A stretch of DNA of 64,000 nt, taken from IMG/VR virus record IMGVR_UViG_3300007513_000003; one strand, written 5' to 3'. The position numbers were made by a program, and so were the translations under genes. Under the pieces are notes generated by a model. That model had not been told where the DNA came from, searched no databases, and was given only the letters and a program-made list of their open reading frames with translations. Positions 1,417 to 38,389 of the stretch are shown in pieces. Each line of letters starts with the position of its first letter. Position 1 is the first letter of the stretch. This DNA comes from a virus. Its lineage: Duplodnaviria; Caudoviricetes.

Positions 1417-1846
1417 TGTTTAAGACATGATGGTCAGGTAACTCATCTTGTGAGTCGCTCCACTTTCCAACATGTTCCGTTTTAAACTCATGCTCTCTGT
1501 CTAAATATTTCCATTCAAGTTTTACTAAACCGAATTCTTGCAATTTCTCAAAAACTTGAATAGGTTTAAATGGCCCGCAAGTATAAACATCTAATTGAAG
1601 CAATGCTGGGTTTGGTTCGTCCCAAATATGCATTGCAATATGGCTTGTTTCAATGATTGAAACAACTGTGATGCCTGCGTTTCCTTCTACTTTCACATAC
1701 TCACAATGTGGACCTGAAAGTAATTTCATATCGATAGTTTTAATTAAATCTATCATCCATTGTTTTGTTTTTTCTACATCGTTCTCATCAGGAGGATTTG
1801 ATACTTCCGCTCTAATGATTAAATGTTTATGAATTGGCAATGCCAT
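1409..1846 (-). CDS. speD: S-adenosylmethionine decarboxylase proenzyme (class 1B)
   Basis: HKHLII, GIT..SIIETSHIAMHIW (E/S self-cleavage site), DVYTCG. Confidence 0.85.
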   Translation of the reverse strand: MALPIHKHLIIRAEVSNPPDENDVEKTKQWMIDLIKTIDMKLLSGPHCEYVKVEGNAGITVVSIIETSHIAMHIWDEPNPALLQLDVYTCGPFKPIQVFEKLQEFGLVKLEWKYLDREHEFKTEHVGKWSDSQDELPDHHVLNNG

Positions 1847-2049: not shown

Positions 2050-2079
2050 ATATGGTATTTATATAAAACAGTTTTTAGG

Positions 2080-3114
2080 TTAAGAATAGTCTTCTAATTC
2101 ACCGTTACGTTCTATTTCATTTGTAGCACAATGAACACCTGTATCCCAAAAGGTTGTTGCTTTCATGTCTACTGGAACACACGTTATGCCTTTTTTCTCT
2201 AATTTGTCGAATAAAGTAGGATATGTTCCTGTAAACAAAATTGTTTTTTCGTTAATACTTAAACTATTTAAATTAAAATAAGTTTCTTCTGTACATGTCT
2301 CTAAAAACTTATAAAACCATTGAGCAATTATTGGGTGGAATTTTTTATGGCGATGTTCATTCACTTTATGCCATGCTTCTTTTACATCGCCGAAGCCTTC
2401 TACATGAATCCTTTCCCATTTTGCAAAAAACGTAGGTAAACATTCAGAAGGTAAACTTGTTATTAATAGTCCTGGTCGAACAAGGAATAGTTGAGAATCT
2501 ATATGGCCATCTGTATCTAATAAATGAAACTTTGCTTTAGGATTAATAGATTTAATCCACTCCATATATAATTGCTTACCTAACTCATTACCCTCATTAG
2601 CAGAATCTTTAGATAATATGATATCATTGCCACATTTTAGTGAAAGTGTGGGTTCATATAAGGGTCTGCCTAAATCTATTTCTGGATCAAACTTATCATA
2701 GTCACCATCAAAAAATATATCATTAGTAGGTAATTCATATATATTATCAAAACTATATTGATTTAGAACATGATCACATGAATTTATACTAAAGCGGTCC
2801 CAGTCCATTGCATAATTTCCTTTATAAAGACTGTTTCCATATATAGTATACATATCTCTAACAGCTAACGGCGGTGTAGTAATTGATGTGCCGTTGTGAA
2901 ATGGATAATCTTGCACACTTCGATGTGTTTGAATATCATAACTAATGAGTACTTTTTCTAACTCATCTAACTCTTGTCTTGACTTGTTGATTATTTCAGT
3001 AAAATACTTTTCATATCTGTTTTTTAATTTTGTATAAGGAATAATACTTTCAGGATTTGGCAATGTGCCAATGATACAAGATTTTAATGGATTAAATTCC
3101 GCCCAAACACTCAT
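2080..3114 (-). CDS. amidinotransferase family protein (glycine/inosamine amidinotransferase fold)
   Basis: WAEFNPLKSCIIG, PLAVRD, GHID (catalytic His), GVHC (catalytic Cys). Confidence 0.8.
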   Translation of the reverse strand: MSVWAEFNPLKSCIIGTLPNPESIIPYTKLKNRYEKYFTEIINKSRQELDELEKVLISYDIQTHRSVQDYPFHNGTSITTPPLAVRDMYTIYGNSLYKGNYAMDWDRFSINSCDHVLNQYSFDNIYELPTNDIFFDGDYDKFDPEIDLGRPLYEPTLSLKCGNDIILSKDSANEGNELGKQLYMEWIKSINPKAKFHLLDTDGHIDSQLFLVRPGLLITSLPSECLPTFFAKWERIHVEGFGDVKEAWHKVNEHRHKKFHPIIAQWFYKFLETCTEETYFNLNSLSINEKTILFTGTYPTLFDKLEKKGITCVPVDMKATTFWDTGVHCATNEIERNGELEDYS

Positions 3115-4677: not shown

Positions 4678-5016
4678 TTATTTTTCGCTTGGTTTGTGGG
4701 TCTTATAAGAATTTTCGTCTTTCACCAACGCCAAAATTAATTGATATTTTTCCCAGGCTTCTTGTAATGCTGGGTGTTTATCACGCAATCGTTGTTCATC
4801 AAAGTGTTGTTTACCTATATTCAATAAATCATCGTGAGATAGCCAACGTCCATGCTCTTTTGTTATTGGTGGTTCGTCGTCTGTTGGGACAAGTACTTCA
4901 GTAGTAGATCCCATGGGCACTCTTCTGGTGATAGTTCTCCCATTATCGGGAGTTTCATAGATATATTTTTCTTGTGTTTCTGATCGACGAAAGAGTGCCA
5001 CATGGAGCCCTACCAA
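4678..5016 (-). CDS. hypothetical protein
   Basis: 112-aa ORF co-oriented with neighbours. Confidence 0.6.
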   Translation of the reverse strand: MVGLHVALFRRSETQEKYIYETPDNGRTITRRVPMGSTTEVLVPTDDEPPITKEHGRWLSHDDLLNIGKQHFDEQRLRDKHPALQEAWEKYQLILALVKDENSYKTHKPSEK

Positions 5017-5710: not shown

Positions 5711-7780
5711 TTAACCAGTGCGTTTTGTGATCATTTCAGTGATATTAGCAGGGCACGGTGCGTAGTGACTAAACTCCATACTAAACTGACCACGGCCGCT
5801 CGTCATACCACGCAAGTCGCCAATATAGCCAAACATTTCACCAATTGGTGCTTCTGCCCAAATGCGTACCTTTTGTCCACTAACTTCTTGATTGCTAATC
5901 ATGCCGCGGCGTCTGTTAATGTCGCCAATAACGTCACCAACTTTATCCTCTGGAGCAATTACGTCAAGTTTCATGACAGGCTCTAGTAATTGTGGTCCTG
6001 CTTTAGGCATGGTTTGTCTAAAGCCACCTCGAGCCGCTAATTCAAACGCAATAGCACTTGAGTCAACTGCGTGTGAAGAACCGTCTGTTAATGTCACTTT
6101 AAAGTCTAACAACGGATAACCTGCTACAATGCCGTTATTAGCAGACTCTCTAAAACCTTTTTCAACAGCAGGCCAAAACTCTCTTGGCACATTACCACCG
6201 ACAACTTTTGATTCAAACTCAAAGCCGCCGCCTGATGGCAATGGCTCTATAGTATATTCAATATCACCAAATTGGCCAGAACCACCTGATTGCTTTTTAT
6301 GAACAAATTTGTCTTCCACTGTTTGTGTAATAGTTTCTCTGTATGCTACTTGTGGTTTACCAATACTTACTTCAATGCCATGGGTTCTTTTAAGAATGTC
6401 GCACTTAATGTCTAAGTGTAGTTCGCCCATACCCTTAAGAATAGTTTGCCCACTTTCTTGATCTGTTTCAACATGGAAGGACGGATCTTCAGCGACCATT
6501 TTACCAATAGCAGTTCCTAACTTATCCATGTCACCTTGTGTCTTTGGTTCAACAGCAATACTAATAACCGGGGCAGGGAATACCATTGGCTCTAGTACGG
6601 CGGGTTTATTTTTATCACACAGTGTATGACCTGTTTGTACAGTTTTCATACCAAGCAATGCAATAATATCGCCTGCTTGTGCAGAGTCCTTTTCTTCTCT
6701 ATTGTCGGCATGCATTTCTACAATACGGCCAACACGTTCGGACTTGCCTGTGCTACTGTTATAAATTGTATCACCTTTGTTAAGTTTGCCAGAGTAAATG
6801 CGTGTAAATGTCAATGCACCATACTTGTCGTCCATAATCTTAAACGCAAGTGCTCTTAGTGGTCTGTCATCATCAACAATAGCATGTTCACCTGTTTCAT
6901 TGCCTTCTAAGTCTACTTCTGGCTGTGGATCAACCTCAGTAGGATTAGGCAAATAATCAACCACGGCACTCAATACATTTTGTACGCCTTTATTTTTAAA
7001 TGAACTACCACAGAATGTTGGGAAGAAATCACAATTAATTGTACCCTTGCGAATACACTTTTTAAGATCTTCTTCGCTAATGCTGTCAGGATCCTCCATC
7101 CACTGCATCATTACATCGTCGTCTTGCTCTACAACTTGCTCTACCATTAGATCATAATATTCTTTGGCCTTGTCTGCCAAGTCTGCAGGAATGTCGCTAA
7201 TAGTGTAAGAAGTAGGATCTGCTGAATTTGACCAGGCCCATGCTTTTTGCGTAAGAATGTCTACAATGCCTACAAAATCATCTTCAGCACCAATTGGAAT
7301 AGCCATAATAACTGGTACTGCGTTTAAGCGATCTTTAATTTGCTCTACTACACGATAGAAATCTGCACCAACTCTATCCATTTTGTTAACGTAAATAACA
7401 CGGGCAACTTCACTGTCATTAGCATAACGCCAGTTTGTTTCGGATTGTGGTTCTACGCCTCCTACCGCGCAAAAAACACCAACGCCACCGTCTAATACTT
7501 TCAATGAGCGGTATACTTCAATTGTAAAGTCAACGTGTCCTGGTGTGTCAATAATGTTAAACTGGTGGTCATCCCAAAAGCATGTTGTAGCGGCTGACTG
7601 AATAGTAATACCGCGTTCCTGCTCTTGCTCCATAAAATCTGTAGTAGCGGCGCCGTCATGTACTTCGCCTATCTTATGGATTTTACCTGTTAGTTTTAAA
7701 ATGCGCTCTGTTGTTGTAGTTTTACCTGCATCAACGTGAGCGAAAATTCCTATGTTTCTATACTTTTGTAGATCTGACAT
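5711..7780 (-). CDS. fusA: translation elongation factor G, full length (689 aa)
   Basis: [15 protein letters not shown] (G1), RGITI (G2), DTPGHVDF (G3), NKMD (G4), [30 protein letters not shown]. Confidence 0.97.
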
Positions 7781-7858: not shown

Positions 7859-9493
7859 TTAGAAACCCCACCAATCACGTACTCCGGGATTAAATGACCC
7901 GCTGGTTGTTCCTGTTATTTTCTCAACTTGCCCATCGCTGTTAGGCACGGGAGTAGAACTGAAATATTTATACTTTATCCATTCTTTACATTTATGACCT
8001 CCAACAAAAATTTCTTGTTCATTATAAGCATCTAATTCTACTTTATATCCCCAGATATAAGCAATATAGTTTAGCACGTCTACAGTAGATTCGTTTGCTA
8101 ATTCTCTACCGCTTTTACCTCTGTATAAATGTAACAATAATGTTCTTTTATCATCATGATCAAAGTCTCTTACTTGTATATCTGGAATGCGATAGTTATA
8201 GTCATATTGTCTTGCTAATTCTTTGCGTATGCTCTTGTAACCAGCGTTGTTATGGATTGCTTTTACTTGATAATGTGGATCTTGCTTGCGGTCGCCAAGT
8301 TGGAACAATCTAAAATCACGTATAACTTTTGGAGATAAAAACTGTAGTATAAAACTCTCGTCCCTATAATTAGCAACGATGTCTAATGTAATCTCTTTCC
8401 AATTACCGCCAGCAACATCAGGAAACCATTCTTTATCTTCTTTTGTTGGCTCATCGCACATACGTTTAATGTCTTGAAAAATAGCAAAACCTAATGCATA
8501 TGGATTTATGCCACCATAATATGGTTTATCAAATGTAAGTTGGTTTAAAACGTTTGTGTGTAGTTTTAAAAACTCTAGCATACTTGCGTCACAAATCAAA
8601 CCTTTTTCATGTAAACGATTCATTGTATAATAATGCACAAAGCAAGCATATCCTTCGTTCATCACTTTTGTTTGTCCTTGCGGATAAAAATATTGTGCTA
8701 TCTTACGCACAATACGACATAATTCGCGTTGCCAATCTGTTAAATTAGGCGCGTTTTTTTCAAGGAAATATATAATGTTTTCTTCTGGTTTATCCAAATA
8801 AACATATTTTCTGTCTGTTTTCTTCTTTTCTTCCTTTTTACGTTTAATTACTGTTGTGTCCCATAACTCATTAACATGTTTGCGTAAGTATTCTGCCCTT
8901 TCACCCGCTTTCTCTGCCTCTGCATACGAATTAAGTTTTACTGGACGCTTATATTTGTTAATACCGTAATTACGAATAGAGTGTAATGCATCTAAAAATA
9001 GTTCTACTTCGTCTAATCCATATTTTTCTTCACACTTCTTAACAAAGTTTTTAGCAAATACAAGATAATCAATAATTGCTTCTGCGTTTGTCCATGTTTT
9101 AAACAAGTAGTTATTTTTAAAGAAATGGTTGTGGCCAAACGCGGCGTGAGCAATAACTAATGCTTGCGTGGTCATTGTATTCTCTTCCATGAGATAGTTT
9201 ATGCATGGATTACTATTAATAACGAGTTCGTATGCTAAACTAGTTCTACCTTTTCTGTATTGATTTTCATAATGTGACCATGCCTTACCATTGCTCCAAT
9301 GGTTATATGATAAGGGCATACCAATACTTGCATATGCATCTAACATTTGCTCAAACGTTACAACTTCAAGTTGGTTCGTGTAAGTATCGCAACCAAGTTC
9401 ATTAACTGCAATATCTTCGCAAGCATCGTAGATGTTACTTACAAGTTCAAAACTCCAATCATCTTGTTGTGTGAATAATAGTTTAGTCATCAC
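7859..9493 (-). CDS. spoVR: SpoVR/YcgB family protein
   Basis: MPLSYNHWSNG, LAYELVINSNPC, HAAFGHNHFFKNN, TKVMNEGYA, YRDESFI.QFLSP. Confidence 0.93.
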   Translation of the reverse strand: MMTKLLFTQQDDWSFELVSNIYDACEDIAVNELGCDTYTNQLEVVTFEQMLDAYASIGMPLSYNHWSNGKAWSHYENQYRKGRTSLAYELVINSNPCINYLMEENTMTTQALVIAHAAFGHNHFFKNNYLFKTWTNAEAIIDYLVFAKNFVKKCEEKYGLDEVELFLDALHSIRNYGINKYKRPVKLNSYAEAEKAGERAEYLRKHVNELWDTTVIKRKKEEKKKTDRKYVYLDKPEENIIYFLEKNAPNLTDWQRELCRIVRKIAQYFYPQGQTKVMNEGYACFVHYYTMNRLHEKGLICDASMLEFLKLHTNVLNQLTFDKPYYGGINPYALGFAIFQDIKRMCDEPTKEDKEWFPDVAGGNWKEITLDIVANYRDESFILQFLSPKVIRDFRLFQLGDRKQDPHYQVKAIHNNAGYKSIRKELARQYDYNYRIPDIQVRDFDHDDKRTLLLHLYRGKSGRELANESTVDVLNYIAYIWGYKVELDAYNEQEIFVGGHKCKEWIKYKYFSSTPVPNSDGQVEKITGTTSGSFNPGVRDWWGF

Positions 9494-10829
9494 TTTTATC
9501 CTTTGGTGTAAAAAACCTTCTAAAAACTGGATATATATCTTTGCTTTGATGAACTCTACCTAATTGTATATTCGACCATTCTTGTGATAACATATAATAT
9601 CTCTTTTCCATACCAGCGCCTGCTACATATTTCAAATCAGCATGTGTCTGACCTGCATTAGGAACAATGCATAAGAATGTAAAATATTGGCAAATAGGTA
9701 AAAGATCGTTGCGTAAAACTTCTGCTACTTTATCATTGTCTGTTGTAAAATTATCACCATCACTTGCCTGGCTAATATAAATGTTCCAGTGTTCTAAATC
9801 ATATCGCTTCTTAATAATTTCATGTGTTAATTCTAATGCTGAACTTACTACTGTGCCGCCACTTTCTTTGCTATTAAAGAATTCATCTTCTGTACATTCC
9901 TTAGCAACAGTATGGTGGCGTATAAACACAATGTCTACCAAGTCATACTTCATATTTAAAAACATATGTAGTAAAATAAAAAAGCGTTTTGCTAAATTCT
10001 TTTCACGTTCTTGCATTGATATTGATACATCTAAAATACAAAACATTACAGCCGCATTTTTAGGCTTTGGTACTTTAGAGAAGTTGTTAAACTTTAGATC
10101 AATTGGATCAATAAACGAGATAGCATTGTATCTTGCTCGTATGCGTTTTATCTCTTCCTCAATCTCTTGCAAACGTAGCCATTCTTGTGTTCTATGATCT
10201 TTGCCTGGTGGCAATGTAGCAAAAAACTCAAGTATTTTATCACGCTCTTCTAGTAGTTCGCGTAATTTTCTTCCCTTAGGCTTTTTAAGAGCCAAACGTC
10301 TGCCAATACTGCGTATCATGCTCTGTTCTAAATTTAGATTGTTTGGTGAGCCTTCATTTACATAACCTGCTCTTTCAACACTAAACTCTTCAATACTTTT
10401 CTTTTGTTTCTCTATTAAATCAGGAAGTTCTAAGTCTTCAAATAATATATCTAAAAATTCATCTTTGTTTATAGAGAATACAAAATCGTCTTCGCCATAT
10501 GCATCATCTGAACCTTCAGATCCGCCGCCGCCTCCTTGGCCACCCTGGGGTGGTTTGCGTATTTTATCGCCAGGAACATATTCTTTATTGCCGGGTAAGA
10601 CATAATCTTTTTCACCTGATTTAGGATCGTATTGGAATTGTGGTTCTTTAATACTTTTAGCAGGAACTTTGACGCGGCTGCCAGACTTTAGATCCTTGAT
10701 AGATCTGTTTTTAATAGTTTCGTCTAAGCTTTCCTTAATATACTTCTTTGACCGCTCAATGAAGCGTTGTCTATTGGAAAGATTCTTTCCCTTAGGATTT
10801 GAACGCCTGTCAATAATATGCTTGGCCAT
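9483..10829 (-). CDS. yeaH: YeaH/YhbH family vWA-like protein
   Basis: IIDRR.NPKGKNLSNRQRF, Gly-rich linker, DVSISM (MIDAS-like), ESGGTVVSSAL, SDGDN. Confidence 0.93.
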   Translation of the reverse strand: MAKHIIDRRSNPKGKNLSNRQRFIERSKKYIKESLDETIKNRSIKDLKSGSRVKVPAKSIKEPQFQYDPKSGEKDYVLPGNKEYVPGDKIRKPPQGGQGGGGGSEGSDDAYGEDDFVFSINKDEFLDILFEDLELPDLIEKQKKSIEEFSVERAGYVNEGSPNNLNLEQSMIRSIGRRLALKKPKGRKLRELLEERDKILEFFATLPPGKDHRTQEWLRLQEIEEEIKRIRARYNAISFIDPIDLKFNNFSKVPKPKNAAVMFCILDVSISMQEREKNLAKRFFILLHMFLNMKYDLVDIVFIRHHTVAKECTEDEFFNSKESGGTVVSSALELTHEIIKKRYDLEHWNIYISQASDGDNFTTDNDKVAEVLRNDLLPICQYFTFLCIVPNAGQTHADLKYVAGAGMEKRYYMLSQEWSNIQLGRVHQSKDIYPVFRRFFTPKDKSDD

Positions 10830-10838
10830 GGTAAACCC

Positions 10839-12779
10839 TTAACTTGACTTCTGGGTTCTCATGTACCATTCAACAAGTCTACGAACTTGCCTATCAGTAT
10901 AACCTTTCTCTTCCATACGAGCAACAAAGTCATTGTGCTTTTGTTGGTCATCTTTGTTTTGCTTATTACCAAAGGAAATAATAGGTAGTAGTTCTTCTGT
11001 GGACGCAAACATTTTCTTTTCAATAATCTCGCGTAGTTTTTCATAACTCGACCACTTTGGATTCTTACCTTTGTTTTTTGCTTTTGCTCTCAATACAAAG
11101 TTGACTACTTCGCTACGGAAGTCTTTTGGATTAGCGATACCGGCTGGTTTCTCAATCTTCTCTAACTCCTCGTTTAGTACTTCGCGGCTAAACAAGTTGC
11201 CTGTGTCAGGATCTTTAAAGTCAATCTCTTGAATCCAGTGATCAGCGTATTCAATATAACGATCAAACAAGTTTTGTCCATAATCACTATAACTTTCTAA
11301 ATATGCTTTTTGTATTTCATTACCAATAAAGTCAGCATACTTTGGAGCCAACCATTCTTTAATAAAGTTTGTGAGCGTTTTTTCATTTTCCTCACCAAAC
11401 TGATCGCGTCTAATTGCTTGCTCTAGTACAAACATCAAATGTACTGGATCAGCCGCAATCTCGTTTGTGTCAAAGTTAAACACTTGTGACAGTATCTTAA
11501 ACGCAAAACGTGTTGATGAGCCAGACATGCCTTCGTCTACTCCCGCAACGTCTTTATATTCTTGTAGTGACTTTGCTTGTGGATCAGTGTCTTTTAAATT
11601 CTTGCCGTTATACACTTGCATTTTGGAAAACAAATTACTGTTTTCATGCTCACGCAGTCTACTTAAAATACTATACTGCGATAACATTTCAAGTGTTTGC
11701 GGGGCACATGGATGCTGTGCTAGTCCACTTGAGTCTAGCATCTTTTCGTAAATACTAATCTCTTCATCAATACGTAAGCAGTAAGGAACCTTAACAACAT
11801 ACACACGATCTAGGAACGCTTCGTTGTTTTTGTTGTTCTTAAATGACTGCCATTCTGATTCGTTACTATGTGCTAAAATTGTTCCACTAAACGGAATAGC
11901 ACTAATACCTTCTGTACCCATATAGTTGCCTTCCTGCGTAGCAGTTAGCAATGGGTGTAATACTTTGATTGGTGCTTTAAACATTTCAACAAATTCCATA
12001 AGGCCTTGGTTGCCTTTACATAATGCACCACTAAATGCGTATGAGTCTGGATCGTGTTGTGAGAAGTACTCAAGTTGACGAATATCTGTCTTACCAACCA
12101 ATGAACTAATGTCTTGGTTGTTTTCGTCACCTGGCTCTGTTTTTACTACAGCAATCTGTTTTAGTTTACTTGGCTGTAATTTTACTACTGTAAATTTAGT
12201 AATGTCACCATCAAATTCATCCAAGCGTTTAATTGCCCATGGGCTTAGTAAGCCAGTTAGGTAACGCTTTGATATTTTATATTCTTTCTCAATTTGCTCA
12301 CCATATTTCTCAGGAGAGAACAGAGACAACGGACTTTCAAAAACAGGGCTAATTACATCGCCTGCTTTTAGTACATAAATTGGATGTATTTCCATTAATT
12401 CTTTTAAACGTTCAGCAAGACTCGACTTGCCGCCGCCCACTGGGCCCAACAAATATAATATTTGTTTACGTTCTTCTAAGCCTTGTGCGGCATGTTTAAA
12501 AAATCCAACAATTCTTTCTACGGTATCTTCTAGTCCGTAAAAGTCTTTAAATGCTGGATATACTCGTAATGTTCTGTTCAGGAAGATGCGTGACAACCGT
12601 GGATCTTCCGAAGTATCTATATGCTCTGGGTCCCCAATGGCAGCTAACATTCGTTCTGCTGATGTAGCATATGCGAGTGGGTCCTTCTTACATAGATTTA
12701 GATACTCTTCAAGTGTGAACTCTTGCTCTTTATATGATTGGTAATCTGCAGAGAACTCCTTTAATAGTTTGCTTGCCAT
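10839..12779 (-). CDS. prkA: PrkA/YeaG family AAA+ Ser/Thr kinase
   Basis: Walker A LLGPVGGGKSS, EPGDENNQDIS, EFVEMFKAPIKVLHPLLTATQE, HSNESEW. Confidence 0.95.
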   Translation of the reverse strand: MASKLLKEFSADYQSYKEQEFTLEEYLNLCKKDPLAYATSAERMLAAIGDPEHIDTSEDPRLSRIFLNRTLRVYPAFKDFYGLEDTVERIVGFFKHAAQGLEERKQILYLLGPVGGGKSSLAERLKELMEIHPIYVLKAGDVISPVFESPLSLFSPEKYGEQIEKEYKISKRYLTGLLSPWAIKRLDEFDGDITKFTVVKLQPSKLKQIAVVKTEPGDENNQDISSLVGKTDIRQLEYFSQHDPDSYAFSGALCKGNQGLMEFVEMFKAPIKVLHPLLTATQEGNYMGTEGISAIPFSGTILAHSNESEWQSFKNNKNNEAFLDRVYVVKVPYCLRIDEEISIYEKMLDSSGLAQHPCAPQTLEMLSQYSILSRLREHENSNLFSKMQVYNGKNLKDTDPQAKSLQEYKDVAGVDEGMSGSSTRFAFKILSQVFNFDTNEIAADPVHLMFVLEQAIRRDQFGEENEKTLTNFIKEWLAPKYADFIGNEIQKAYLESYSDYGQNLFDRYIEYADHWIQEIDFKDPDTGNLFSREVLNEELEKIEKPAGIANPKDFRSEVVNFVLRAKAKNKGKNPKWSSYEKLREIIEKKMFASTEELLPIISFGNKQNKDDQQKHNDFVARMEEKGYTDRQVRRLVEWYMRTQKSS

Positions 12780-14344: not shown

Positions 14345-15688
14345 TTAGTAATAGATTTTATATATTTCTCTTACGTCATATTCAGGGTGATGTTTTTGTA
14401 GTATTTCTAGAGCGTTTCGAATTCTACTATAATCATTTTCTTTATTGAATGTAAAGTTTTTCAAAGATTCAATTAGATTTTTTATTTGTTCAATATCATC
14501 GCTGTAAAAACAACTACTTTTCTTCAGTGTGTGTTCAATTTTCTCTCTGCAATTTTGGACGACATCATAGGGAACTAATCGCAAGTTAAAATCACTGCTA
14601 TCTACCATTTGAACAAGCCCTGCTATACGCACTCTCTTATGCATAGGTATTTTTTTATTTTTTAGATCCATAAAAGAAAGTAGTTCATCTAAATATGGCA
14701 ACGTTAACGCTGTTATAACTATATTAAACGAAACTGGAGTATGATCGCATTCTAGGCCAATCTGTAAATATTGATCAATATTTTTTTCTAGTTTTGTCCA
14801 TTTTACAGGATATCTCTGTAATTCAATCGCCGGGCCTACACTATCAATACTTAATACTAACATAACAAGTTTAAAATGCTTGATGATTTCAATGAATCTA
14901 GGATGAATCATTGTCGTATTTGTAGTTATTACTAATTCTATATTTTTACTGTGATCGCATTCTATCAAATATTCTAAAAATTTTAAATTTTCTAATATTA
15001 TAGTGGGTTCGCCGCCACTTAAATACAATCGAGTAATATTGCTTATTCTTTTTTCTCCAATAATATTTTTTAATCCTATTTTTGAAGGCCAATTATATTT
15101 TTTAAGTTTTTTAGAAGTTCTACTCGCACCCGCGTATTCATTGTCAGGCCTGCCTGTTTCAGAAAGATCATATTTAAATTGGCTTAAATCATCAACGCCT
15201 AGTCTATTAAAAAATCTTCCATAGGTAATACTATAATCACTATTACAAATTTTACATGCCAAGTTACATGTATTTCCAGACTGTATTTGATAAAAATAAG
15301 GATAGCTATCGTCTAATATAAAATTATTTTTAACACTTTTATCAACAACGTCTTGTATGTGAGGATAGCTATCCTCCGCACCAAGCGCCGCCTGGCGAAC
15401 ACTCCACATGCCACGTTCTTCAGAGTCCCAGCAATTCTGACATTCAGGTGCCTTAACTCCATTATATAGATTTTCTCGAAGTTTAAGCATCCTTTTGGAA
15501 TTCCACGCATCATTTAAAGTATGTGTGTTTATGTTATAGTGATTTCCGTTCTCATCCAAGTGGGCATACTCTTTATCGTTACTCGAGGCACAACAAAATT
15601 TTATATCACCATTGGTTTCTATTTCTTGATGGGCCCAGGGATAAGTGCAAAGTGGTTTATTCATTATCTTGTATTTTAGATTGGACAA
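14345..15688 (-). CDS. radical SAM protein with N-terminal SPASM/twitch-like Cys cluster
   Basis: CNLACKIC, SGGEP, N-terminal CTYPW...CC...CQNC. Confidence 0.88.
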   Translation of the reverse strand: MSNLKYKIMNKPLCTYPWAHQEIETNGDIKFCCASSNDKEYAHLDENGNHYNINTHTLNDAWNSKRMLKLRENLYNGVKAPECQNCWDSEERGMWSVRQAALGAEDSYPHIQDVVDKSVKNNFILDDSYPYFYQIQSGNTCNLACKICNSDYSITYGRFFNRLGVDDLSQFKYDLSETGRPDNEYAGASRTSKKLKKYNWPSKIGLKNIIGEKRISNITRLYLSGGEPTIILENLKFLEYLIECDHSKNIELVITTNTTMIHPRFIEIIKHFKLVMLVLSIDSVGPAIELQRYPVKWTKLEKNIDQYLQIGLECDHTPVSFNIVITALTLPYLDELLSFMDLKNKKIPMHKRVRIAGLVQMVDSSDFNLRLVPYDVVQNCREKIEHTLKKSSCFYSDDIEQIKNLIESLKNFTFNKENDYSRIRNALEILQKHHPEYDVREIYKIYY

Positions 15689-32792: not shown

Positions 32793-33860
32793 ATGCACGA
32801 CAAAAAGTTCTTTTGTATAGAGCCTTTCGTAAGTCTTTCTATAGTTAAAGAAGATCATATTTTTCCTTGTTGTCTTAATGAAGGGCAAAAAAGCACTCAA
32901 AAAGATGACCTATGGAACGATCCTTATCTTGAAAATATACGAAAACAAATTCTAAACAACGAAGTTCCTGAAGAATGTCGCGCCTGTGTTGAACAAGAAA
33001 AGTTTGGTCGATATAGCAGACGATTACATTCTAATGATGTTTGGTTAGAACAACACGGCAATTTTGAAGATGCTCTTGAAAATGATGCTCCGTATAAGTT
33101 AGATTTTTGGACTGGAAACTTGTGTAATTTGGCTTGTAGTACTTGTACATATACAAATAGTTCATCATGGTTTACACTTCTTAAAAAAGCAGATAAAGCA
33201 GGAAAAACTGATTTACGTTATAAAGGAAACTATGTAAGTAATTTAGATTACTCTTATGAATTTAAAAAAGAAGATATTCCGAATATTGACTTTAAAAATA
33301 TGGAAAATATACACTTCAACGGCGGTGAACCCTTGCTAACAGATTCACACTTTAAAATTTTAAATTTAATTCCGCCAGAACAAAGAAAGGATGTTTATGT
33401 CATTTATAACACAAACGGTACCGTCAGAATAGATTTAGAAGATGAAAAATGGAGTATTTTCAAAGAATACAAAAGTGTCGATATGTGTTTTAGTATAGAT
33501 GGCATTGAAGAAACATTTAATTATGTTAGATGGCCTGCTAAATGGGAAGAAGTACAAAGCAACATTGATCTATGGGCTGAATATTGTTATGGAAAATATG
33601 ATGACTGCCACTTTGAAATGAGTGTAAACATGGTAAAAACTCCGCACAATTATACAACGTTTGATAATGCCGTTAAATATGTCACTGATCGTTGGTTTAC
33701 CAAACTTATTGCGATTCGAAACGCAAGCATTGATGAATATGTGTTTACTACTAATGATCATTCTTTTATGGATTGGTCAGACGCACAATTTGAAGAATAC
33801 ACAAAGACAGAAGAATTTTTCTTGCAAACAAAAAATTTAGAAACACTACGAAATCTTTGA
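32793..33860 (+). CDS. radical SAM protein with N-terminal SPASM/twitch-like Cys cluster
   Basis: CNLACSTC, FNGGEPL, FSIDG; N-terminal FCIEPF..PCC..CRAC. Confidence 0.88.
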   Translation: MHDKKFFCIEPFVSLSIVKEDHIFPCCLNEGQKSTQKDDLWNDPYLENIRKQILNNEVPEECRACVEQEKFGRYSRRLHSNDVWLEQHGNFEDALENDAPYKLDFWTGNLCNLACSTCTYTNSSSWFTLLKKADKAGKTDLRYKGNYVSNLDYSYEFKKEDIPNIDFKNMENIHFNGGEPLLTDSHFKILNLIPPEQRKDVYVIYNTNGTVRIDLEDEKWSIFKEYKSVDMCFSIDGIEETFNYVRWPAKWEEVQSNIDLWAEYCYGKYDDCHFEMSVNMVKTPHNYTTFDNAVKYVTDRWFTKLIAIRNASIDEYVFTTNDHSFMDWSDAQFEEYTKTEEFFLQTKNLETLRNL

Positions 33861-34470: not shown

Positions 34471-34782
34471 TTAGTATAATCTATTTTTACTAGGTATTCT
34501 TTCTGCTTGCTCTTTAAGATGCCGCTTGCGGGCAACGTCTCTTGCTCTTTTTCTTTTAATACTTGGCTTTTCATAATGTTCGCGGGCTTTTAGTTCTTGC
34601 AATTTGCCGTCGTTGTCTATTTTCTTCTTAAGTTTACGTATTGCCTTTTCAACATTTCCGTCATTAACCCAAACTCTGAGTCCTGTAATTTTTACTGGAG
34701 CCCGTTTATCTTTTTGTTTGAATGGCGCTCTTCTATTATTATTCCATTTTGTATTTCTATTATTCCAAGTTTGTGCCATCAT
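34471..34782 (-). CDS. rpsU: 30S ribosomal protein bS21 with basic N-terminal extension
   Basis: V.VNDGNVEKAIRKLKKKI, REHYEKPS.KRKR. Confidence 0.88.
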   Translation of the reverse strand: MMAQTWNNRNTKWNNNRRAPFKQKDKRAPVKITGLRVWVNDGNVEKAIRKLKKKIDNDGKLQELKAREHYEKPSIKRKRARDVARKRHLKEQAERIPSKNRLY

Positions 34783-37153: not shown

Positions 37154-37174
37154 TAACCACACCGAGTGTGGTTA
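37154..37174. promoter_or_regulatory. perfect 9-3-9 palindrome upstream of a small exported protein gene
   Basis: TAACCACAC-CGA-GTGTGGTTA. Confidence 0.55.
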
Positions 37175-37192
37175 TATTATGGAGGTATTATA

Positions 37193-37408
37193 ATGATAAA
37201 GGCTCTTTTAAGCGCAGCTTTATTACTAGGTCTTTCTGGAATCGCATCTGCAGAAGGTCGTGATGTAGCTTGGGAGAATTTCCAAGGAACAGTCGGCACT
37301 CCTGGCCCTTGCGAAGTTCTAGTAAATGATAAAGGTAAACCATATGTTTGTTGGACTATCTTTCCAGGACCTGGTGCAGAAGGCTCCGGAGAAGATTACC
37401 GCAAGTAA
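37193..37408 (+). CDS. small exported protein (71 aa)
   Basis: SD GGAGG; signal peptide MIKALLSAALLLGLSGIASA; two Cys. Confidence 0.7.
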   Translation: MIKALLSAALLLGLSGIASAEGRDVAWENFQGTVGTPGPCEVLVNDKGKPYVCWTIFPGPGAEGSGEDYRK

Positions 37409-37492
37409 ACATTAATTTATTTCTATTATAGGAGAAGGGCGTACGGAATGGTTTTGCTATTAGCAGGATTACCGGCGCCCTTTTTCACTCCA

Positions 37493-38338
37493 TTAATTAT
37501 TATACATTTCCATAGCACGAATAAAACGTGTCATACCAATGCCACCGCCTACTCTTGGAAAGAAGTCCATTGCTAAAAAGTCTTCCAACTCTTTTTCAAC
37601 TCTTTCTCTACCAAACGTATCAAATAGTATATTAGCATAACCGCCGTCACTAATAGTATGGAACATATGTTTCATTTGTTCTTTATCTGTAGCACGTTCT
37701 GCTGATCCAATTGTTTCTTGTCCAGCAATAATAACATCAATCTTTGCCGCAGTTTCGCCATCGTCGTTTTGTTTCATGTTCCAAAATGGACTTGTGTAGT
37801 TTGGAAAGTTTTTAATCATTGCTACACGGCCATTAAAGTTTTGGCACATTTTTTCTTCATGCTCGTGTTCTAATTCTTTAACGCCGTAAATATCACACCA
37901 TTCTAAATAATCTTTAGCAACAATGTTTTCGCCATCGGACCATGTTAAGTAGTCCATAAGTTCGCGTTCCATCTTCTCTAAATCTAAAATAGTTCCTGGA
38001 AACTCAAACTCAAACATTGGAAATATTAGTTCATGTCTACCAGCTACCGGATTTGGCTCTTGCCTATAGGAGGTGGAAATACAAAAAAACCCCGGAACGT
38101 CGGGGCGTGTTAGTAATTCATGTTCGAGCCACATTTGGCCCGTTTGTGGCAGGGGCCATAGTTGCCCTGCGTAATTATAGGTCGCTATTGTTGTTGGATC
38201 TTCGCATGCCGCTAGTATGCTTAATCTATTTTGTGTGTGTACTTCTAAGAATCCTTTAGCCATAAAAAAAGACCTTAATAGGTCTGCGGCTTGTGTAAAG
38301 TGTTGTGGATTGATAAGTTGTGTCATTGTTTTCTCCAT
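37493..38338 (-). CDS. class II aminoacyl-tRNA synthetase catalytic-domain protein (Asn/Asp/Lys-like, no anticodon domain)
   Basis: Motif 2 SYRQEP...RH..IFPMFEFE, ETIGSAER, motif 3 PRVGGGIGMTRF; only 281 aa. Confidence 0.85.
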   Translation of the reverse strand: MEKTMTQLINPQHFTQAADLLRSFFMAKGFLEVHTQNRLSILAACEDPTTIATYNYAGQLWPLPQTGQMWLEHELLTRPDVPGFFCISTSYRQEPNPVAGRHELIFPMFEFEFPGTILDLEKMERELMDYLTWSDGENIVAKDYLEWCDIYGVKELEHEHEEKMCQNFNGRVAMIKNFPNYTSPFWNMKQNDDGETAAKIDVIIAGQETIGSAERATDKEQMKHMFHTISDGGYANILFDTFGRERVEKELEDFLAMDFFPRVGGGIGMTRFIRAMEMYNN

Positions 38339-38373: not shown

Positions 38374-38389
38374 CTATTTATATAAATAG
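38374..38389. promoter_or_regulatory. palindromic bidirectional late promoter
   Basis: CTATTTATATAAATAG between divergent genes; TATAAATA on both strands. Confidence 0.65.

Follow-up and report, generated by a model that had tools for sequence, protein, structure and literature searches.

HisZ, a HisRS paralogue that has no anticodon domain, is the regulatory subunit of ATP phosphoribosyltransferase and hence the partner of a nucleotide-pathway enzyme. EpmA (also called GenX or PoxA), the lysine aminoacylase of EF-P, is a class IIb aminoacyl-tRNA synthetase (aaRS) core that stands alone without an anticodon domain and derives from LysRS. The archaeal AS-AR, a truncated AsnRS paralogue (P. abyssi, 3P8T/3REU), sets a precedent for an AsnRS-derived core in tRNA-free metabolism; to our knowledge, and going by PMC2330236 and PMC3532385, it is linked neither to pyrimidine genes nor to a dedicated tRNA. 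Closer still are the 'tRNA ligase' proteins (T4-GC194) of the Prochlorococcus phages P-SSM2, P-SSM5 and P-SSM7, which are accompanied by a 'tRNA-Asn' and were given in a table, without analysis, by Sullivan et al. 2010 (PMC3037559). We analysed a related gene in a 64,000-nucleotide stretch of viral DNA (hereafter the window; Caudoviricetes, IMG/VR record IMGVR_UViG_3300007513_000003), whose product, P0001, is 64% identical to these phage proteins, which are true members of its family. Below, 'ligase' denotes a member of that family, PHROG 29758. We put at about even the chance that the ligase binds asparagine, depends on ATP and works one stage ahead of dihydroorotate dehydrogenase (DHODH, PyrD), bypassing aspartate carbamoyltransferase (ATCase, PyrB); judged by its residues and relatives, the probable task of the window protein is to make a nucleotide precursor by a route not yet described, and neither to charge a tRNA nor to modify a protein. 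Among the explanations considered, this one accounts for more of the evidence than any other.

PHROG 29758, annotated as 'unknown function', was matched by P0001 with an E-value of 1.2e-124 (416 bits; residues 5–277 on positions 1–266 of 267). The metagenome search scored over 8,000 relatives of near length, and 698 clusters (50% identity level) were recovered at E <= 1e-3. This large and uncharacterised group has carriers among the three Prochlorococcus phages and huge uncultured phages, and it also occurs in cellular genomes and on giant-virus-bin contigs. In the literature we found no paper on a pairing of ligase and tRNA or on an ATCase bypass, the family being mentioned only in the PMC3037559 table.

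The original prediction had described the protein as a stand-alone class II core of 281 aa with motifs 2 and 3 intact and no OB domain, and Pfam, the alignments and an AlphaFold2 (AF2) model all confirm this description. PF00152 (tRNA-synt_2) spans residues 15–276 (E 7.3e-15, 55.3 bits against a cut-off of 25), Pfam detected no OB anticodon domain in P0001, and the AF2 model is a confident single domain (pLDDT 95.1, pTM 0.92). Motifs 2 and 3 are both intact, as is the D201/E208/R215 block, and P0001 departs from the tRNA-linked ligases described below at only 2 of the 102 columns that are at least 95% conserved among them; by this measure, the window protein is not decaying. A split AsnRS with its OB domain in trans was ruled out, since a search for a separate PF01336 domain detected none in three complete genomes (P-SSM2, P-SSM7 and the 328-kb phage G005) or in two partial contigs (G001 and G002), with controls positive in 14 of 14, and the ligase has no conserved protein neighbour. 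A separate OB domain that completes the core, which would have counted against the prediction, is therefore not seen in these sequences.

The position of the protein among class IIb enzymes rests on hidden Markov model (HMM), hhalign and structure scores, and AsnRS came top in the NCBIfam, family-profile-against-PDB, structure and hhalign comparisons. With NCBIfam models, P0001 gave E-values of 9e-10 for asnS, 3e-9 for non-discriminating AspRS (ND-AspRS), 8e-5 for archaeal asparagine synthetase A and 0.02 for EpmA, all far under the cut-offs. The family profile matched AsnRS (3e-16), archaeal/eukaryal AspRS (6e-14), AS-AR (1e-7; 3P8T 1.3e-7) and LysRS (2e-5) in the PDB, with no match to GenX or E. 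coli AsnA. Structural alignment of the P0001 model (VIA-align) produced Z scores of 28 for AsnRS, 26.8 for AspRS, 24.6 for AS-AR, 24.0 for LysRS and 23.8 for GenX. Taken together, the AsnRS, AspRS and LysRS cores fall at Z 23–28, and P0001 shows motifs 1–3 and the antiparallel-sheet fold expected of subclass IIb. Against the E. coli paralogues, hhalign returned 96.9% for AsnRS, 94% for LysRS, 88.8% for EpmA, 84% for AspRS and 4% (E 0.01) for AsnA, so that there is no profile-level homology to bacterial AsnA across the core. P0001 nevertheless scored below the equivalog cut-offs of canonical AsnRS (TIGR00457, 37.9 against 342.6 bits; NF003037, 37 against 414), of archaeal asparagine synthetase A/AS-AR (NF005055 and NF005052, 21.9 against 389) and of EpmA/GenX (TIGR00462, 14.2 against 286.9; NF006828, 12.9 against 264). 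AsnRS is thus the closest of EpmA, AsnA, AsnRS and AspRS, with P0001 under every equivalog cut-off tested, and the earlier view of a stand-alone catalytic core whose target is unknown is supported, the core being of class IIb and of the Asp/Asn/Lys group.

Compared with Brugia and E. coli AsnRS, and with AspRS as contrast, the specificity residues of P0001 are of AsnRS type: QxxQLxxE, an E-x-E ending motif 2, and GxxxR. Their AspRS counterparts are QSPQLYKQ, with K-Q at the last two specific positions, and a D-x-E ending motif 2. Q65, Q68, L71 and E72 are almost invariant across the family. AsnRS structures and sequences (human 8H53, Brugia 2XTI, P. horikoshii 1X54, E. coli AsnS) share motifs 1–3, QxxQLxxE and E-x-E with the ligase and align over 253–256 residues at Z 27–28 and 21–22% identity. 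Unlike these enzymes, which carry an N-terminal OB anticodon-binding domain, the ligase family has none in cis or in trans; it also coexists with canonical AsnRS in bacteria, where it is linked to PyrD, PyrE and PyrF and not to translation genes. On sequence and fold comparison, the family descends from the catalytic core of an AsnRS that lost its anticodon-binding domain.

Two previously suggested roles bear directly on these rankings. In the first, the ligase would act like AS-AR, adenylating the beta-carboxylate of aspartate and adding ammonia to release free asparagine independently of tRNA. The archaeal enzyme has the same size and domain architecture (a core of about 290 aa without anticodon domain), its structures (3REX, 3REU, 3P8T) align at Z 24–24.6, its profile is matched, there is the weak NCBIfam match to archaeal asparagine synthetase A, and the linked tRNA(GUU) described below could reflect a theme of asparagine supply. 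The ligase is a separate lineage, however, closer to true AsnRS by every measure and far under the AS-AR cut-off, while profiles show essentially no relation to E. coli AsnA; nor would this role explain the PyrD and PyrF fusions, the pyrimidine gene clusters and the complementarity with ATCase reported below, or the near-absence of tRNA(GUU) without the enzyme. We regard such an asparagine synthetase as improbable, and the original idea that the protein supplies asparagine keeps at best the weak support of the architecture and these matches. The second suggestion, that the ligase is an EpmA/GenX-like protein aminoacylase acting on a translation factor (EF-P or the phage EF-G, for example), seems scarcely credible. 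It has in its favour the stand-alone class IIb core, GenX structures at Z 23.4–23.8 and an EF-G gene in the same window, but EpmA ranks below AsnRS and LysRS in hhalign and structure, there is no match to the EpmA family model, the motifs for specificity point to Asn and not to Lys, and the window gene has no EF-P context. The EF-G, which the original prediction had called nearby, lies about 30 kb from the ligase, and no protein neighbour is common to more than 18 of 113 ligase loci.

The catalytic features hold across very different genomic contexts. Of the 133 columns that are at least 90% conserved in tRNA-linked ligases, 110 are identical in the group linked to pyrimidine genes, and the remaining 23 show conservative changes, none of them in a catalytic or specificity motif. 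P0001 is 52–57% identical to the ligase domain of PyrD-fused members. Given these shared active-site columns, phage, giant-virus and bacterial members most likely have one function.

The association that carries our interpretation is clearest in cells. A scan of one genome per prokaryotic species, with alignment A5 as query, detected the family in 401 cellular genome loci at 57–73% identity to P0001, many of them on Mb-size contigs or closed chromosomes. Carriers are found in Saccharibacteria and other Patescibacteria, Dependentiae, Rickettsiales (Bandiella, Midichloriaceae), Pasteurellaceae (a Phocoenobacter isolate) and Aureispira/Chitinophagales, among others. A pyrF-pyrE|pyrD-ligase cluster recurs in Bacteroidota (Aureispira/Chitinophagales), and the ligase is flanked by PyrD or PyrF in Phocoenobacter, Bandiella and others; a PyrF-like/ligase/PyrD island is present in 2 of 61 Pasteurellaceae genomes. 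We searched 23 carrier genomes whole for pyrimidine enzymes, counting scores over the cut-off. ATCase was found in none of them, CarB in 2 and PyrC in 1 (with matches below the cut-off in six more), while PyrD and PyrF were each found in 16; in the control genomes, every early enzyme was found in 14 of 14. In the Aureispira order (genome G009), ATCase was present in 0 of 3 ligase-positive against 52 of 58 ligase-negative genomes (Fisher one-sided p = 0.0023), the three positives being possibly related to each other. Ligase and ATCase are thus complementary in one Bacteroidota order. At least 13 of the 23 carriers also encode a canonical full-length AsnRS, which argues that the ligase is not the housekeeping AsnRS.

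In the clusters and fusions, the ligase would form an unbroken series of steps with PyrD, PyrE and PyrF also if it were an ATP-driven substitute for dihydroorotase (PyrC) alone, adenylating the beta-carboxylate of N-carbamoyl-L-aspartate in the manner of AsnA and AS-AR, a directly analogous chemistry, and closing the ring to dihydroorotate. The scarcity of PyrC among the carriers fits this. Carbamoyl-aspartate would still need ATCase, however, which reached its cut-off in none of the 23 carriers and is complementary to the ligase in Bacteroidota, and the specificity motifs are of Asn (carboxamide) and not Asp type, so that we hold a PyrC-only substitute to be very unlikely.

Viral genomes carry the same association in fewer loci. 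Thirteen longer homologues were identified, nine of which join PyrD (a class 1A-type DHODH) to the ligase and one the ligase to PyrF; another is a homing-endonuclease run-on. Fusion P0126 was seen on 7 contigs. P0280 was rejected as a functional clue because it is the run-on into a GIY-YIG homing endonuclease, and P0282 was not counted as a firm independent fusion, covering only part of the ligase. On giant-virus-bin contigs with PCNA and class I ribonucleotide reductase (RNR) genes nearby, the ligase adjoins PyrD and a PyrE-PyrF fusion (uridine monophosphate synthase, UMPS), with no ATCase or dihydroorotase within 8 kb of it. HisZ offers an analogy for the link to PyrE/UMPS, though it belongs to another subclass and has lost its catalytic residues, all of which the ligase family retains. 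A scan of viral contigs with P0149 gave no match, and a single-sequence UMPS scan matched only itself. A stand-alone phage PyrE-like phosphoribosyltransferase of 179–185 aa is present in more than 530 viral-contig loci and occasionally lies beside the cassette of ligase and tRNA (examples in the table). Taken alone, the viral data establish a pyrimidine link that is real but confined to a minority of loci.

The second partner of the ligase is a tRNA. In P-SSM2 and P-SSM7, a tRNA of 87–88 nt with a GUU anticodon lies directly 3' of the ligase gene. Of 82 ligase loci, 71 have this tRNA(GUU) directly 3' in the same orientation, as located by a covariance model, and among 51 loci chosen by the tRNA alone, with enough upstream sequence, the ligase was directly upstream in 49, at a median gap of about 16 nt. 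In the other two (L170 and L197), no ligase was found elsewhere in the fetched locus. The commonest protein neighbour of the ligase is common to at most 18 of 113 loci, and since the protein neighbours vary in this way, the ligase and its tRNA move as a module. The tRNA is real by covariation, with 98.8% of cells paired, compensatory changes in 20 of 24 pairs and none of 500 shuffles reaching the observed score. It combines a type-II body and a Leu-like D-arm with an invariant U1 and G34-U35-U36, and A72-G73-CCA is kept in 46 of 50 unique sequences; AsnRS or ND-AspRS, and the bacterial GatCAB, recognise GUU, G73 and U1-A72 (PMC2330236). Position 33 is not U in 34% of unique sequences and position 37 is U in 82%, which suggests that these positions are poorly suited to ribosomal decoding. 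In G005 (locus L025), the ligase is followed in this slot by a tRNA-Leu(UAA) of ordinary type, and the genome has a normal tRNA-Asn of 76 nt at a distance of 208 kb, which fits derivation of the tRNA(GUU) body from tRNA-Leu. The features of tRNA(GUU) fit an asparagine carrier for the ligase and a private aaRS/tRNA pair equally well.

The window copy differs from those of the Prochlorococcus phages in having no such tRNA directly 3'. ARAGORN, Rfam and covariance model R1 run with filters off (best E about 4) detected no tRNA(GUU) in the window, and the 62-kb contig G001, which carries the 92%-identical relative L003, contains only tRNA-Tyr, tRNA-Met and tRNA-Glu. We also rejected a decayed tRNA in the 3' flank of the window gene, as nothing there matches a tRNA and the hairpin in that position is unlike tRNA(GUU); the hairpin is probably a terminator or stability element. 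In a quick maximum-likelihood tree, the window protein and L003 are nested within a clade of mostly tRNA-linked members, and given this placement, the adjacent tRNA(GUU) of the window copy was probably lost or relocated.

The tRNA data bear most strongly on the idea of a minimal AsnRS, a core that charges the acceptor end without reading the anticodon and would act on its private tRNA(GUU) or, for orphan copies, on the host tRNA-Asn (U1-A72, G73), so boosting or insulating late asparagine decoding. The tight pairing seen from both sides, a covarying tRNA that keeps its Asn identity elements, the mobility of the pair as a module among varying protein neighbours, the AsnRS-type specificity motifs, the late-promoter motif on the gene and the presence of EF-G, S21 and transfer-messenger RNA (tmRNA) genes in the same window all speak for it. 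It is hard to reconcile with the same active site in cellular members that have a full AsnRS and pyrimidine clusters, leaves the PyrD and PyrF fusions unexplained, and meets neither a tRNA(GUU) in the window or in the contig of its closest relative nor an anticodon-binding domain in the complete phage genomes searched; the non-U33 and U37 positions also suit ribosomal decoding poorly. Weighing both sides, we consider a minimal AsnRS unlikely.

We return to the asparagine-dependent bypass of ATCase. In this proposal the ligase would bind ATP and an asparagine-like substrate and yield the substrate of PyrD without ATCase, the simplest fitting chemistry being L-asparagine + CO2/bicarbonate + ATP -> dihydroorotate. 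Asparagine already holds N1, C6, C5, C4 and N3 of dihydroorotate, so one carbonyl from CO2 or bicarbonate would close the ring. In the window phage, the enzyme would feed the PyrD, PyrE and PyrF of the host and raise the supply of UMP; in most phage relatives, the dedicated tRNA(GUU) appears to serve it, perhaps as an asparagine carrier or as the substrate of a retained charging activity. The fold, the intact active site with its AsnRS-type specificity motifs, both genomic associations and the ATCase absence in the carriers are observations; the reaction, what it would consume and yield, and the extension of the cellular and giant-virus function to the window copy are inferred. A more elaborate form can only be put forward tentatively: a single enzyme would convert asparagine, CO2/bicarbonate and ATP to dihydroorotate, replacing carbamoyl-phosphate synthetase, ATCase and dihydroorotase, and a non-decoding tRNA(GUU), loaded by the host AsnRS or by ND-AspRS/GatCAB via GUU, G73 and U1-A72, would deliver the asparagine.

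Several observations weigh against the bypass. Pyrimidine genes lie near the ligase in only about 5% of viral loci; PyrD is absent from 5 of 5 large or complete ligase-bearing phage genomes and PyrF from 4 of 4 searched; and tblastn found no pyrimidine genes in the window, where the gene also has no tRNA(GUU) near it. A ligase near the phage PyrE occurs in only 6 of 80 loci, roughly the expectation from clustering of accessory genes, so that this adjacency was set aside as weak evidence. Among cells, PyrC-like matches below the cut-off occur in large Bacteroidota genomes, many carriers are metagenome-assembled or reduced genomes, and Pasteurellaceae lack ATCase in 61 of 61 genomes (G013, G014, G032-G090) whether the ligase is present or not, with the ligase in 2 of the 61 and only OTC-like (ornithine carbamoyltransferase-like) matches of 114–133 bits, under the curated cut-off, in the ATCase search; this makes the Pasteurellaceae uninformative for a comparison of ligase and ATCase profiles. 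Part of the 0 of 23 is thus lineage background or incompleteness. The tight linkage to tRNA(GUU) and the probable late promoter suit a role in translation better. Moreover, ring closure to dihydroorotate does not call for activation of the alpha-carboxylate, the group on which an AsnRS-type pocket acts, and the proposed chemistry therefore requires a different binding pose. Our confidence stays near the midpoint because the late-promoter motif, the translation genes in the window and the lack of a pyrimidine gene there favour a translation role.

If true, a bypass of the first three steps by one enzyme would depart from the six-step de novo pyrimidine pathway, which is treated as universal. 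Metabolic reconstructions would be revised for Patescibacteria, Rickettsiales, Dependentiae, some Bacteroidota and Pasteurellaceae, where PyrD, PyrE and PyrF are kept without ATCase; a very abundant 'tRNA ligase' gene of ocean phages and giant viruses would be explained; and a new chemistry would be added to those of the aaRS paralogues AsnA, AS-AR, HisZ and EpmA. The dedicated tRNA(GUU) would either form with the ligase an aaRS/tRNA pair that is naturally orthogonal or show a tRNA in a new use outside translation, and, should it be a carrier, a tRNA-dependent step in nucleotide synthesis.

Table. Positions of the ligase gene, its motifs and other features in the window, and of features in related loci
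Sequence	Feature	Coordinates	Strand	Remarks
Window	P0001 open reading frame (ORF), 281 aa, ATG start	37493..38338	-	stand-alone AsnRS-like class IIb catalytic core; PHROG 29758 member
Window	amino-acid-binding motif Q65-T-G-Q68-M-W-L71-E72	38123..38146	-	HMMER and hhalign alignments to AsnRS and AspRS
Window	motif 2, R92-Q-E94 ... G100-R101-H102 ... F106 ... E110-F-E112	38003..38065	-	invariant columns in family
Window	D201 ... E208-T-I-G-S-A-E-R215, metal/ATP-binding acidic residues and side-chain-binding Arg of class IIb enzymes	37694..37738	-	alignments
Window	motif 3, R262-V-G-G-G-I-G-M-T-R271	37526..37555	-	alignments, conserved columns
Window	T4-type late-promoter motif TATAAATA	38375..38382	-	37 nt upstream of P0001 start codon
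Window	hairpin directly 3' of P0001 stop	37431..37491	-	slot held by tRNA(GUU) in relatives; fold, z = -2.05
Window	80-aa ORF convergent with ligase	37166-37408	+	between ligase and 646-aa gene
Window	S21 homologue	34471-34782	-	PF01165, E 4e-16
Window	radical-SAM protein, first	14345-15688	-	SPASM domain N-terminal
Window	radical-SAM protein, second	32793-33860	+	
Window	two-piece (permuted) tmRNA, tag ANDDYYDYALAA	29555-29882	-	RF04321 122 bits, alpha_tmRNA 84 bits
Window	SpoVR, DUF444 (YeaH-like) and PrkA in a row	7859-12779	-	strong PHROG matches
Window	full-length EF-G homologue, all five domains	5711-7780	-	TATAAATA motif 28 nt upstream
Window	TATAAATA sites (examples)	1068, 7808, 16320, 38375, 40757, 42833, 49000, 53063, 57911		
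L170	tRNA(GUU) without ligase	2051-2146		
L197	tRNA(GUU) without ligase	1705-1789		
L025 (G005)	tRNA-Leu(UAA) in slot after ligase	4858-4944		
L148	phage PyrE-like	5612-6166		
L297	phage PyrE-like	2659-3195		
L326, L370, L377, L383	phage PyrE-like			

The window comes from a large marine phage. At an estimated completeness of 19%, the G001 contig of the closest relative implies a genome size near 330 kb. Most ligase neighbours in the window have no Pfam family, and the window also carries a class II RNR and a tail-fibre-like gene. The small convergent ORF beside the ligase has no family match, and its start reads as hydrophobic and signal-like. The motif TATAAATA is in mild excess (18 sites against 12 expected); the coding strand carries 16 of them, including 12 placed 5–54 nt upstream of ORF starts, a position suggesting that the phage probably uses T4-type late promoters.

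A homologue of ribosomal protein S21 is encoded 2.7 kb downstream of the ligase. SpoVR, DUF444 and PrkA form a conserved stress-kinase triad, each matching a PHROG of unknown function, and one of the two radical-SAM proteins has an unusual domain order. The matches of the tmRNA to RF04321 and alpha_tmRNA suggest an alphaproteobacterial, possibly SAR11-like, host. The relatives L009, L023 and L068 carry a tmRNA immediately behind the ligase or its tRNA.

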